Source of the DNA: a virus
Direction: 5' to 3' (one strand)
IMG/VR virus record: IMGVR_UViG_3300023179_000039
Location: 32,001-96,000 of that record
DNA length: 64,000 bases
The notes under the pieces were generated by a model. The model saw only the letters and a program-made list of their open reading frames with translations, did not search any database and was not told the origin of the DNA. Below, in pieces: positions 2,705 to 54,899 of the stretch. The position numbers were made by a program, and so were the translations under genes. Each line of letters starts with the position of its first letter. Position 1 is the first letter of the stretch.

Positions 2705-2880
2705 GAAAGTTATCTAGAAAAGAAATTAAAAAATTAGAAGAGGAAGGGCGTTTAAGAGATTTAGTTGAAATCTGGGTTGACCGCCACAATCATAAGCTTG
2801 AATTATTACGCACACTTACAAGCTTTATTGCCGCAGCATGCTCTTCTGTTGTTTTGTTAAAATTATTTCACTTGATTTGA
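2701..2880 (+). CDS. Small 59-aa protein with hydrophobic C-terminus (not in ORF track)
   Basis: ATGA overlap with upstream stop; MRKLSRKEIKKLEEEGRLRDLVEIWVDRHNHKLELLRTLTSFIAAACSSVVLLKLFHLI fills the gap. Confidence 0.7.
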   Translation: MRKLSRKEIKKLEEEGRLRDLVEIWVDRHNHKLELLRTLTSFIAAACSSVVLLKLFHLI

Positions 2881-2899
2881 CAAGTATTTAAGTTATAAT
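2872..2899 (+). promoter_or_regulatory. Sigma70-type promoter, leaderless geometry (gp43)
   Basis: TTGATT-N16-TATAAT-N6-GTG. Confidence 0.75.
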
Positions 2900-2905
2900 T
2901 TTTAA

Positions 2906-5497
2906 GTGTATCGTAACGTAGCATATCTTCCAAAAGATCAATTAATGCGACTATTCACTTGGGATAGTGATGGTAAGCGTGTAGCTGTCGACACTACCTA
3001 CGAACCGTACATATATTTGGAAACTAATAATCATCCGGATAGTAATAGTATTTTTAATACAAAGTTAAAAAAGAAAAGGTTTAAAAACCAAGCTGAGCGC
3101 TCACGTTATCTTAAGGATAATAAAGTCACGCGCGTCTTTGAAAACTTAAATATACAACAACAGTTTCTTATTGATAACTTTTGGGAGCTTAACGAGAAGG
3201 ATGAATTCACTAAACATCCTATACGCGTGCTTTTTATAGATATCGAGACATATAGCCCGGATGAATTTCCACAAGTAGATAATCCCAACCATCCAATTAA
3301 TGTTATAACCGTTTATGATACATTAAGGAAGCAGTTTATAACATGGGGGTTAAAAGCTTTTCATAAGAATATTAATAACGGTATATATATCTATTGTAAG
3401 ACAGAAAAAGATTTGTTATCAAAATTTATAAATTTCTTTGCATCTGATTATCCAGATATTTTATCTGGATGGAATAGTGAATTTTTTGACGTACCTTATA
3501 TTATTAACCGTATTACACGTATCTTAGGTGAAGATGAAACGAAACGGCTTTCACCGGTAGGCTATATTCGTCCTATTGTGTTTAAGGGTAAGTTTGGAAG
3601 AGAGCAGGTACACTGGCATATAGAGGGCGTATCTTGCGTTGATTATCTAGATATCTACAAAAGATTTTGCCCCACATTGCGTGAATCATATAAGTTAGAT
3701 GCTATCGGCGAACTTGAGCTTGGTGAAAATAAGATAGATTACGGTGATACTAATCTAGCAAGTCTTGCTGATGATAATTGGGAATTATTTATCGAATATA
3801 ATATTCAAGACGTAAACCTTCTTGTACGCCTAGAAGAAAAGCTACAATACTTGAAGCTATTGAAAATGATTGCATATGCCGGGCTAACAACGTTTGAAGG
3901 CGCGCTTGGCTCTTTGTCCGTTATTACAGGGCTTTGTGCTATCAGAGCACGTGGTCGTAATCAAAGAATCCCCACATTTGTTAAAACCGTTACCAACGAT
4001 GAGCAGAATGCTGGGGCTTATGTGGGTGAGCCTCTTAAAGGGTTTCAAGAAAATATAGTATCATTTGATGCAAACAGCCTATATCCAAACGTAATGATTA
4101 CTTTAAATTTATCTCCAGAAACTAAGGTAGGTGTAATTACAGAAAAAACAGATAAAGAAATTACTATTCATCATGTTAACGGTCAAGAGTTTAAACTTTC
4201 GGTAAACAGTTTTGTTGAGTTTATAAAGAAAGAGAAGATAGCTATATCAAAAGCTAAAGTATTATTCACACAAAAAGAAAAAGGTATTATACCTGAAACT
4301 GTTGATCATTTTTATAAAAAGAGAGTAGAAATTAAAAGACAACTTAAACTTCTAAAGAAGAAACTAGTAAGTCTAGACATTAAATCAGAAGAATATACAA
4401 CACTAAGCCAACAAGTTGATAATTTAAATATTTTACAACATACAATTAAGATTTTAATTAATACAATCTATGGCTACTTCGGTAATAAGCATAGCCCTCT
4501 TGGCGACGACGAACTAGCAGAGTCAATTACACTGACCGGTCAAGCCGTGATTAAGGAATCTAACAGGTTACTAGAAGAATATGTAAAACAAAAAACAGGA
4601 ATGACAGATAAAGATCTTTTAGAAGATACGCCTATTATATACAACGATACAGACAGTTCCTATATTTCTATAAAACATATTGTTAAGAAAACAGGATTAA
4701 AAATGTTCGATAATAAAGGTAAAATTACTCCAGAATACTACAAAGAAGTGCAAAACATAGAAGATTATCTCAATAAAAATATTATTGTTTGGGGCCAGAC
4801 AGCTTTAGGTTCAACAGATTGCCGGCTAAATTTTAAGAGAGAAGCGATCGCAGATACCGGTATCTTTCTTCAAAAAAAGCGATATGTTCTACATGTTCTC
4901 GATGAAGAAGGTATTCCGTGCGATAAATTTAAGTATACAGGTGTTGAGGTTGTACGCACAACTATGCCAGCGCCTATCAAGCCTTATGTAAAGAAGATTA
5001 TTGAAACAATGCTTCTCACAAGAGATTTGGGGGAAACAAATAAAATCTTTAACGAAACATATGATATTTTTAAAGGGTTAGATGTGGAGGACATTGCCTT
5101 TGTTATGGGAGTTAAGGGATATGAAAAATATGCTTCAATGTGTGACGGATTTAAAACTGCCAAGCATATGCCTATTCACGTCAAAGCAGGATATTTTTAC
5201 AATCTGCTCCTAGACAGATTTAACACTGGTAAAAAATACGAAAAAATATCCTCTGGAGATAAGGTAAGATACTTTTATGCTAAACAACCAAATAAATTCG
5301 GCATATCGACAATAGGTTACAAATATAGTTATCCCAAAGAATTTAGAGAAGTTTTTGAGCCTGATCACGAATTAATGTTTGAGAAGATTATCTTTTCAGT
5401 TATTGAAAGGTTTTACGAGGCCGTGAATTGGAAATTATTATCTCCTGGCTGCCAAGTACAGACAGATTTATTTGATTTATTAAGTGTTGATAGTTGA
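2906..5497 (+). CDS. gp43: Family B DNA polymerase
   Basis: ExoI DIET, ExoII WNSEFFDVPY, motif A DANSLYP, motif B KILINTIYG, motif C YNDTDS, KKRY. Confidence 0.97.
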   Translation: MYRNVAYLPKDQLMRLFTWDSDGKRVAVDTTYEPYIYLETNNHPDSNSIFNTKLKKKRFKNQAERSRYLKDNKVTRVFENLNIQQQFLIDNFWELNEKDEFTKHPIRVLFIDIETYSPDEFPQVDNPNHPINVITVYDTLRKQFITWGLKAFHKNINNGIYIYCKTEKDLLSKFINFFASDYPDILSGWNSEFFDVPYIINRITRILGEDETKRLSPVGYIRPIVFKGKFGREQVHWHIEGVSCVDYLDIYKRFCPTLRESYKLDAIGELELGENKIDYGDTNLASLADDNWELFIEYNIQDVNLLVRLEEKLQYLKLLKMIAYAGLTTFEGALGSLSVITGLCAIRARGRNQRIPTFVKTVTNDEQNAGAYVGEPLKGFQENIVSFDANSLYPNVMITLNLSPETKVGVITEKTDKEITIHHVNGQEFKLSVNSFVEFIKKEKIAISKAKVLFTQKEKGIIPETVDHFYKKRVEIKRQLKLLKKKLVSLDIKSEEYTTLSQQVDNLNILQHTIKILINTIYGYFGNKHSPLGDDELAESITLTGQAVIKESNRLLEEYVKQKTGMTDKDLLEDTPIIYNDTDSSYISIKHIVKKTGLKMFDNKGKITPEYYKEVQNIEDYLNKNIIVWGQTALGSTDCRLNFKREAIADTGIFLQKKRYVLHVLDEEGIPCDKFKYTGVEVVRTTMPAPIKPYVKKIIETMLLTRDLGETNKIFNETYDIFKGLDVEDIAFVMGVKGYEKYASMCDGFKTAKHMPIHVKAGYFYNLLLDRFNTGKKYEKISSGDKVRYFYAKQPNKFGISTIGYKYSYPKEFREVFEPDHELMFEKIIFSVIERFYEAVNWKLLSPGCQVQTDLFDLLSVDS

Positions 5498-5521
5498 TTT
5501 ATTCTTATAATATTATAATAT
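5494..5521 (+). promoter_or_regulatory. Sigma70-type promoter, leaderless geometry
   Basis: TTGATT-N16-TAATAT-N6-ATG 5528. Confidence 0.7.
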
Positions 5522-53569: not shown

Positions 53570-53578
53570 TTAATAAGA

Positions 53579-53606
53579 TTGATTTAAACCGATCTTATTA
53601 TAAAAT
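53579..53606 (+). promoter_or_regulatory. Sigma70-type promoter, leaderless geometry (glycosylation operon)
   Basis: TTGATT-N16-TAAAAT-N6-GTG 53613. Confidence 0.7.
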
Positions 53607-53612
53607 ATTCTT

Positions 53613-54899
53613 GTGAAGTCAAAGAAAGCTTTAAAAACATCAAGTACCAAAAAGAATAATGAAAAAATATTTATATCTATTGCATCCTATAGAGATCCGC
53701 AGTTACTACCCACACTGCGCGATTGTATAGCTAACGCTGTACATCCTGAGAATTTAGTTTTTTCTATTTGCTGGCAAAGAGACGAGAAAGAATCGCTAGA
53801 AGAGTTTGCAAAAGACAGCAGATTTAGAATTATAGATATACCTTATAAGGAAAGCAAAGGGACATGTTGGGCAAGAAGCAAGATACAAGATAATTATCAG
53901 AACGAAAAATACTATCTACAATTAGACAGTCATCATAGATTTGTAAAAGACTGGGATAAAAAGTGTATAGATATGGTTAAACAGTTACAGAAAAAAGGCC
54001 ATAAGAAACCGCTACTAACAGGCTACATTTCTAGCTTTAATCCGGATAATGACCCCGCTGAAAGAATACAAACACCATGGAAAATGAATTTTGATAGATT
54101 TATTCCTGAAGGTGCTGTATTTTTTCTACCTGCTTCTATAGACGATTTTAAATCAAGAACTGAACCAGTACCTTCTAGATTTGTATCTGCACATTTTATT
54201 TTTACGCTAGGTAAATGGGTAGAAGAAGTGCCTTATGATCCTCATTACTACTTTCATGGTGAAGAGATAAACTTAGCAGTTAGATCATATACGTGGGGAT
54301 ATGATTTGTTTCATCCTCATATTTTGATTGCATGGCATGAATATACAAGAAGAGGAAGAACTAAGCATTGGGATGATGTAAAAGAATGGGGTGAATTAAA
54401 CAGACTATCTCATCTTCGTAATAGAAAGTTATTTGAAATGGATGGCGAAAAGAATGATATTAAATGGGGTAAATATGGATTTGGTAAGACCAGAACATTA
54501 CAAGACTATGAAAAATATTCAGGTCTATGTTTTAAGAGGAGAGCTGTACAGCGTTGGACGTTAGATAACAATTATCCACCTAATCCTAATCAAGCTATGA
54601 CAAAGGATGAATATGAAAAATCGTTCTTAAAAATATTTAAACATTGTATTGATATAGGATATGACAGAGTTCCAGAAAAAGATTATGATTTTTGGTGTGT
54701 AGCCTTTAAAGATAAAGAAGGTAAAGATGTGTTTCGTAAAGATGCTGATCGCGCTGAAATAGATAGAATGTTTGCTGATCCTGACAAATATTGTAAGGTT
54801 TGGAGAGAATTTAATTGTGAGGAGATGCCTACCAGCTGGATTGTTTGGCCACATAGCGTTTCTAAGGGATGGGCAGATCCAATTACTGGTAATATCTAA
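53613..54899 (+). CDS. GT60-like polypeptide GlcNAc-transferase (Skp1 Gnt1-type)
   Basis: IFISIASYRD, SKGTCWAR, LQLDSHHRF..DWD, SAHFIF, VPYDP..YFHGEE...AVR.YT.GYD. Confidence 0.85.
   Translation: MKSKKALKTSSTKKNNEKIFISIASYRDPQLLPTLRDCIANAVHPENLVFSICWQRDEKESLEEFAKDSRFRIIDIPYKESKGTCWARSKIQDNYQNEKYYLQLDSHHRFVKDWDKKCIDMVKQLQKKGHKKPLLTGYISSFNPDNDPAERIQTPWKMNFDRFIPEGAVFFLPASIDDFKSRTEPVPSRFVSAHFIFTLGKWVEEVPYDPHYYFHGEEINLAVRSYTWGYDLFHPHILIAWHEYTRRGRTKHWDDVKEWGELNRLSHLRNRKLFEMDGEKNDIKWGKYGFGKTRTLQDYEKYSGLCFKRRAVQRWTLDNNYPPNPNQAMTKDEYEKSFLKIFKHCIDIGYDRVPEKDYDFWCVAFKDKEGKDVFRKDADRAEIDRMFADPDKYCKVWREFNCEEMPTSWIVWPHSVSKGWADPITGNI

Follow-up and report, generated by a model that had tools for sequence, protein, structure and literature searches.

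Does transcription of the replication genes of an uncultured T4-like phage begin at the start codon itself? The question was raised by a stretch of 64,000 nt (the window; bases 32001-96000 of the 109,659-bp IMG/VR viral contig IMGVR_UViG_3300023179_000039), in which 11 genes are preceded at a fixed distance by a promoter-like element. The contig had an estimated completeness of about 51% (CheckV) and a GC content of about 32-33%, and carried a T4-type replisome together with tail and baseplate genes. A sequence-only reading of the window had placed the start codon of these 11 genes exactly 34 nt after the first T of a -35 hexamer, and all 11 sites matched that description. Judging from the DNA sequence, we consider it probable that the elements are promoters read by a host sigma factor and that the resulting mRNAs are leaderless.

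All 11 sites, on the plus strand, consisted of a -35 hexamer TTGNNN, a 16-nt spacer, a -10 hexamer TANNNT, 6 nt and the start codon. The -35 hexamer was TTGATT at five sites and TTGATA at three, with TTGTAA, TTGTAT and TTGCAA found once each; six of the start codons were ATG and five were GTG. Among replication and recombination genes, the element was TTGATT-N16-TATAAT-N6-GTG (2872..2908) at the family-B DNA polymerase (PolB, gp43-like; 2906-5497), TTGTAA-N16-TATACT-N6-ATG (5890..5926) at the UvsX-like recombinase (5924-7042), TTGATT-N16-TATTAT-N6-ATG (10600..10636) at the DnaB/gp41-like helicase (10634-11962), TTGATT-N16-TATCAT-N6-ATG (13128..13164) at the gp32 single-stranded DNA-binding protein (13162-14022) and TTGTAT-N16-TATACT-N6-GTG (17940..17976) at the gp61-like DNA primase (17974-19005). 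The set was wider than the replisome to which it had first been ascribed. It also included an RmlD/epimerase-like protein (TTGATA-N16-TAAAAT-N6-GTG, 16566..16602), whose GTG start was supported because the Pfam match begins at residue 1; a dUTPase (TTGATA-N16-TATAAT-N6-ATG, 40273..40309; gene 40307-40765, plus strand), which forms an island within the virion-gene region; and a glycosyltransferase operon whose first gene belongs to GlcNAc-transferase family PF11397 (TTGATT-N16-TAAAAT-N6-GTG, 53579..53615). Three genes without assigned function completed it, namely a conserved 117-amino-acid protein (TTGATT-N16-TAATAT-N6-ATG, 5494..5530), a 243-amino-acid protein (TTGATA-N16-TATTAT-N6-GTG, 15127..15163) and a 146-amino-acid protein (TTGCAA-N16-TATAAT-N6-ATG, 19794..19830), the last with its -35 hexamer inside the preceding open reading frame (ORF) at 19427-19813.

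The pattern TTGNNN-N16-TANNNT-N6-[AG]TG matched 12 times on the plus strand and not once on the minus strand. When the spacer was varied from 14 to 19 nt and the distance to the start from 3 to 10 nt, each of the other 47 combinations gave 0-4 matches (mean 1.0). Shuffling the sequence 300 times with dinucleotides preserved gave a mean of 0.93 matches (sd 1.0, maximum 5; Poisson P ~4e-10), showing that the start-codon geometry was far beyond chance. Eleven of the 12 matches fell on the first start codon of an ORF with clear homology (117-863 amino acids). The twelfth (54181..54217, plus strand; start at 54215) lay out of frame within ORF 53613-54899 and was counted as chance because about one match was expected from the shuffles. 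The remaining 45.7 kb of the contig held no counterpart of any of the 11 sites. Under a stricter A/T-rich filter (TTG[ATC][AT][ATC]-N16-TA[ATC][ATC][AT]T, which excludes the 5924 and 17974 sites), every intergenic plus-strand match adjoined a start at N6 except two, one at 9195-9222 and the other an overlapping second match within the 17974 promoter.

In the units starting at 5528, 13162, 15161 and 16600, the upstream gene ended in a TGA embedded in the -35 hexamer (T-TGA-TT/A; plus-strand stops at 5495-5497, the PolB stop, and at 13129-13131, 15128-15130 and 16567-16569). The intergenic gap was therefore at its minimum of 30 nt in these four units. Only 6 nt separated the -10 hexamer from the start codon at the 11 sites, and no Shine-Dalgarno (SD) sequence was present. 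SD-like 4-mers preceded 10 of the 114 contig genes, compared with 9.9% of random positions, showing no enrichment. Of the 114 ORFs, 41 were preceded by a strict form of either this TTG/TANNNT motif or a TAAATA box, and a weak form preceded another 17. The other 56 nearly all overlapped the upstream gene on the same strand or began no more than 9 nt past its stop, which suggests that promoterless genes are translationally coupled. Start codons also differed between the groups: promoter-adjacent starts comprised 29 ATG, 12 GTG and 0 TTG, and those elsewhere 56, 4 and 12, respectively (P = 0.001 and 0.004). The absence of TTG next to promoters is what a purine at +1 would require.

The intergenic match at 9195-9222 was the only promoter of the TTG-N16-TANNNT type not fused to a start. 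It belonged to a class-II glutamine amidotransferase (GATase_6/7) with a leader, and the whole arrangement (9195..9248, plus strand) read TTGAAT-N16-TATAAT, 6 nt, GAGG, 10 nt, ATT. The GAGG (9229-9232) coincided with the predicted +1, the ATT start was at 9243-9245 and a cysteine codon, TGC, followed at 9246-9248. Class-II glutamine amidotransferases use an N-terminal cysteine as the nucleophile. An in-frame TAA at 9237-9239 was followed by an open frame beginning at 9240; the ORF finder had instead started the gene at a TTG at 9360. This was the only SD sequence in the region. The layout TATAAT-N5/6-(A)GGAGG-N8-10-ATT-TGC was kept in 14 close relatives, and nine more distant relatives carried TATAAT-N6/7-ATG-TGC instead. 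The gene thus provided a natural control, in which an SD sequence appears where the start codon is not at +1 and the internal geometry of the promoter is independent of its distance to the start. It also indicates that the host ribosome can use an SD sequence, so that SD absence elsewhere reflects design and not incapacity. The amidotransferase (9195-9926) lies near a QueC-like gene (7008-7748), and together they may constitute a module for 7-deazaguanine DNA modification.

A search with PolB retrieved 47 related viral contigs (43-90% identity, 710 kb in total), in which the combination of a 16-nt spacer and a 6-nt distance gave 112 matches, compared with about 10 in background combinations; shoulders were seen at N5, N7 and N8. 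At orthologous starts (PolB, the 117-amino-acid gene, UvsX, the helicase, gp32 and the 243-amino-acid gene) the TTG, the TANNNT and the distances were kept and the spacer sequence drifted. Among 40 distinct sequences upstream of PolB, TANNNT stood at N6 in 30, at N7 in 6 and at N5 in 2; the 117-amino-acid gene and UvsX each had N6 in 26 of 30 sequences. The start of PolB alternated between GTG and ATG at one codon, all orthologues aligning from residue 1, and the stop within the -35 hexamer was retained at the junction of PolB and the 117-amino-acid gene. A metagenome scan with gp32 showed that TTGNNN-N16-TATAAT-N6-ATG was retained in marine (TARA and other) relatives at 50-55% gp32 identity, and the layout was also present in more distant freshwater relatives. 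When 211 distinct upstream sequences were pooled, 117 had the -10 hexamer at N6 (117 of 168 classified cases). A TTG at the 16-nt spacer accompanied 94 of these 117, indicating a clade-wide preference for the spacer that the sequence-only reading had suggested may fingerprint the host sigma factor, and a pyrimidine occupied -1 in 96 (82%). The geometry, first described as invariant, is so in this genome; in relatives the distance from -10 to start is mostly 6 nt and ranges from 5 to 9. In the pooled set GTG starts occurred only with the -10 hexamer at 5-6 nt (33 cases; none of 43 starts at 7-9 nt). Among PolB orthologues most N6 sites had GTG and the inspected N7 sites had ATG, a pattern that may simply reflect shared ancestry.

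One relative, G004, carried an early-gene region absent from the focal contig (G004:C1:1-14000), where about ten near-consensus cassettes, TTGAC(T/A/C)-N16-TATAAT-N6-ATG, preceded ORFs of 50-110 amino acids at about 2.1-8.8 kb. Because these cassettes share both the 16-nt spacer and the fused start, neither feature is special to replisome genes. The six bases before the ATG of the cassettes were often AGGAGT or AGGTGT, and the spacer ended in a TTCC-like word.

Under the leaderless reading, the 11 elements would be primary-sigma (sigma70-family) promoters used by the host RNA polymerase, with early or middle timing. Transcription would start at the seventh base past the -10 hexamer, which coincides with the initial A or G of the start codon, and the 5'-terminal AUG or GUG with initiator tRNA would engage the ribosome directly, with no SD interaction. 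The downstream genes of each unit would be reached by termination-reinitiation coupling. In the late genes, a gp55-type TAAATA box 5-7 nt ahead of the start would bring about the same fusion. As for a primary-sigma promoter, TANNNT was present at 11 of 11 sites and TTG at 11 of 11, at 16 nt where 16-18 nt is allowed. Transcription starts prefer a pyrimidine at -1 and a purine at +1, and a pyrimidine followed by a purine at the predicted +1 in 82% of the N6 cases is consistent with initiation about 7 nt past the -10 hexamer. No region-4 sigma factor was found on the contig, the sole contig searched, where only a gp55-like region-2 protein was present, and a search without positive control found no AsiA in five partial clade genomes. 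The host sigma factor is therefore the likely reader, with about half of the genome seen. We infer, as the sequence-only reading had proposed, that the first base of the start codon is +1 and that the core replisome is translated from leaderless mRNA. The statistics, the geometry kept despite spacer drift and the lack of SD sequences argue for this, with further support from the -1 pyrimidine, the absence of TTG starts and the amidotransferase control, in which an SD sequence accompanies an AUU start.

Several points weigh against this reading. Promoter activity and the position of +1 are extrapolated from E. coli-type geometry, and the capacity of the host to initiate on leaderless GUG is assumed. 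A scan of the region for a generic sigma70 consensus found 96 promoters where 84.6 were expected, and the promoter signal appeared only when anchored on start codons; because no enrichment was seen in this AT-rich DNA, the generic scan was not usable as evidence. Predicted minimum free energy of folding in the first 36 nt was the same for promoter-abutted starts, other starts and internal windows. No strong plus-strand hairpin was found between units, only four weak matches of 5-8 pairs, so that nested read-through polycistronic RNAs are likely, and these probably exist alongside leaderless ones. The only strong intrinsic terminator-like hairpin in 2.5-22.4 kb was a bidirectional one at 22290..22313. 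About 20% of the orthologous starts in relatives had the -10 hexamer at N7-N9, and their transcripts would carry leaders of 1-3 nt if the start site does not shift. Transcript-like contigs were also sought among the 80 gp32 metagenome loci returned by the scan, and none begins at the gp32 start codon.

The tolerance of N5-N9 in relatives bears on an alternative in which the promoters are real and transcription begins 1-5 nt ahead of the start codon, or at more than one position, giving very short leaders. Four of the 11 focal sites carry a purine (A) at -1, and in Deinococcus 13% of mRNAs start 'very close to' the start codon, not exactly there (PMC4007540). However, N6 forms a sharp mode in the pooled orthologues, and the prevalence of a pyrimidine at -1 in N6 cases favours the start-codon purine as +1, so that we regard this alternative as unlikely. 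A leader of 1-5 nt is too short for an SD sequence, and the mechanism of translation would therefore be the same.

In another alternative, which we think improbable, the mRNAs would still be leaderless, and the TTGAT(T/A) hexamer at -35 would be read by a phage activator or a remodelled polymerase, as in T4 middle transcription, with the spacing set by the phage. The genes driven by the elements correspond to the T4 middle-mode set (replication and recombination), their TTGATT or TTGTAx hexamers differ from the TTGAC(T/A/C) of the early cassettes in G004 at the same 16-nt spacer, and the contig covers only about 51% of the genome. However, early-type and replisome-type promoters share their spacing, and a TTG placed 16 nt from a TANNNT is a usual arrangement in primary-sigma promoters. 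No MotA-box-like TGCTT was present at -30, and neither AsiA (in the five partial genomes, searched without positive control) nor a second sigma factor with a region 4 (on the focal contig) was found.

That the elements instead serve translation, as A/U-rich initiation or standby sites on long polycistronic RNAs (e.g., in S1-dependent, SD-independent initiation), is highly improbable. The contig-wide lack of SD enrichment and of strong terminators between units would suit such a role, and some bacterial phyla initiate without SD sequences on leadered mRNAs (PMC3160421). However, a TTG 34 nt upstream of the start and a fixed 16 nt from TANNNT is a signature of polymerase and lies beyond the ribosome footprint. 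Moreover, the amidotransferase element keeps its geometry 14 nt farther from the start, where an SD sequence appears, and genes without the element use stop-start overlap. A compositional artefact of AT-rich DNA, or mis-called starts, is scarcely credible: TA-rich hexamers are indeed common at 32% GC and the generic scan showed no enrichment, but the shuffles, the spacer and distance grids and the replication in relatives already refute it, alignments with known families extend to residue 1 or 3 in the epimerase and to residue 1 in UvsX, and PolB orthologues align from their first residue across ATG/GTG swaps.

A second class of fused elements carried the hexamer TAAATA. Across both strands of the contig, it stood 5 nt ahead of the start in 21 genes, 6 nt in six and 7 nt in three. 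Seventeen such genes (tail, baseplate and other) lay in the window, e.g., those at 26064, 26768, 29081, 29654, 42353, 48139, 59900 and 60648. Two divergent TAAATA-N5-start units shared a 30-nt intergenic region (19397..19426) between the genes at 18992-19396 (minus strand) and 19427-19813 (plus strand). The T4 late promoter is a TATAAATA-like box with a TAAATA core that ends about 6 nt before +1. Here the late-box core was found at the T4 distance together with a phage-encoded gp55-like late sigma factor (contig 30021-30605, window -1979 to -1395; phrog_234, E = 8e-27), as in T4-type late promoters; gp33 and the sliding clamp were not identified. Another divergent pair, 22337-23266 (minus strand) and 23278-26055 (plus strand), was 11 nt apart (23264-23280). 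The TAAATA box of the minus-strand gene overlapped the complement of the ATG of the plus-strand gene, and no clear promoter was in register with the latter, which encodes 925 amino acids. Relatives also carried arrays of paralogous genes of 180-240 amino acids (G001:C1:140001-157857, at 12129-17072; G004:C1:1-14000, at 11204-13705), in which every gene follows a conserved word of about 45 nt whose end is a (C)ATAAATA/TTAAATA-type box 5-6 nt before the ATG. One relative is labelled a 'provirus', apparently wrongly, since its ends are phage-like paralogue arrays.

The replisome gene set, a gp55-like late sigma factor, repeated sigma70-like early promoters and the TAAATA late-box core are shared with T4 and T4-type coliphages. 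T4 middle promoters differ, having a TGCTT-type MotA box at -30 and using AsiA/MotA, whereas the sites described here carry TTGAT or TTGTA at -35. The Thermus phage phiYS40 is said to be a large lytic phage whose promoters abut starts and whose host translates leaderless mRNA well; its lineage is unrelated to the T4-like phage studied here, its host is reportedly a thermophilic member of Deinococcus-Thermus and its middle and late promoters reportedly lack the -35 hexamer that is conserved here. Sevostyanova et al. 2007 (J Mol Biol 366:420; cited in PMC12340547) are reported to have found its middle and late transcripts mostly leaderless. Pelagibacter phage Mosig EXVC030M (MT647606), which is among the closest T4-like phages in culture (PolB and gp32 at about 30% identity), is likewise a low-GC aquatic phage with the gene order UvsY-UvsW-gp55-gp47-gp46, and has a few abutting starts, e.g., TTGACA-N17-TAGGAT-N6-ATG and one TAAATA-N5-ATG. 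However, many Mosig genes have GGAG or AGGAG sites, and its late boxes lie mostly about 15-25 nt upstream of the start.

In the PeSL cassettes of T4-type coliphages, a strong sigma70-like promoter and a stem-loop terminator are combined with an SD sequence before the start (PMC2839356); here the promoter was present, with no strong stem-loop between units and no SD sequence, and the start codon itself would be +1. The lambda cI mRNA from PRM is also a phage transcript that begins at AUG and is translated leaderless (PMC10491246), but it represents one regulatory gene in an SD-led genome, whereas leaderless initiation here would be the default design. The closest published layouts are cellular. 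One published in-silico criterion for leaderless genes is a TANNNT that begins about 12 nt ahead of the start (PMC3160421), and TANNNT was found at about that distance, with no SD sequence, at all 11 sites. The layout with the start next to the -10 hexamer has been validated in Deinococcus by 5'-end mapping and reporters (PMC4007540, PMC12340547), and a correctly spaced -35 hexamer boosts such TA-led promoters (PMC12340547). The TA-led genes of Deinococcus-Thermus and Actinobacteria share the upstream TANNNT, the lack of SD sequences and the AUG and GUG 5' ends (PMC12340547, PMC4007540, PMC3160421, PMC4633059). Those genes are cellular, mostly high-GC and usually without a conserved -35 hexamer, with SD-led genes alongside. 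By contrast, the present case is a T4-like phage of 32% GC with full -35 and -10 hexamers and a rigid 16-nt spacer, in which promoter fusion is seen at nearly all genes outside the stop-start coupled ones. In E. coli a 5'-terminal GUG gives only low expression (reviewed in PMC4007540), and GUG at five of the 11 sites therefore points to a host that accepts 5'-GUG, like Deinococcus (PMC4007540). A literature search turned up no account of T4-type phages organised in a leaderless way.

Directly upstream of the window, the contig encoded UvsY, a UvsW-type helicase, the gp55-like late sigma factor, gp47 and gp46. Among cultured phages, none exceeded about 30-32% identity in PolB or gp32, the top matches being cyanophages and Pelagibacter phage Mosig. 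ARAGORN found one tRNA-Met and no tmRNA on the contig. The tRNA-Met(CAT) (contig 109492-109564, minus strand, outside the window) had an initiator-like C-C mismatch atop the acceptor stem (1:72); the base of its anticodon stem had just two G-C pairs and one G-U, so that its initiator identity is putative. GTDB genome contigs yielded no relative when scanned with PolB, with the RmlD-like protein or with a UvsX alignment of 12 sequences, and QueC gave only a 35% match, in a metagenome-assembled genome of Spirochaetia. In the five partial clade genomes neither WhiB (an actinophage marker) nor psbA (a cyanophage marker) was found. A Bacteroidota-type promoter (TTG ... TAnnTTTG) was rejected since none of the 11 -10 boxes was followed by TTTG.

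Taken across the clade, the evidence is evenly balanced on whether a large, globally distributed group of uncultured freshwater and marine T4-like phages has abandoned SD-led initiation in favour of start codons fused to early, replisome and late promoters, with stop-start coupling of all other cistrons. SD-led mRNAs regulated through their leaders are classically exemplified by T4-type phages, in which translational repression, of gene 32 and by RegA, acts on leaders. If the replisome genes, and most others, have no leaders across a whole clade, controls of the gene 32 and RegA type could therefore not operate there. The finding, if true, would also imply an abundant host lineage in which ribosomes take 5'-terminal AUG and GUG as the standard signal for initiation and the polymerase favours a 16-nt spacer, and the motif could serve to find that host. 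The signature TTG-N19-TANNNT-N6-RTG with no SD sequence would then be searchable in candidate host genomes and in existing lake and ocean metatranscriptomes. Gene callers that expect a ribosome-binding site will misplace starts in this clade, as illustrated by the amidotransferase, which starts at the ATT at 9243 and not at the TTG at 9360. If the reading is true, the clade would be a natural model for leaderless initiation on AUG and GUG.

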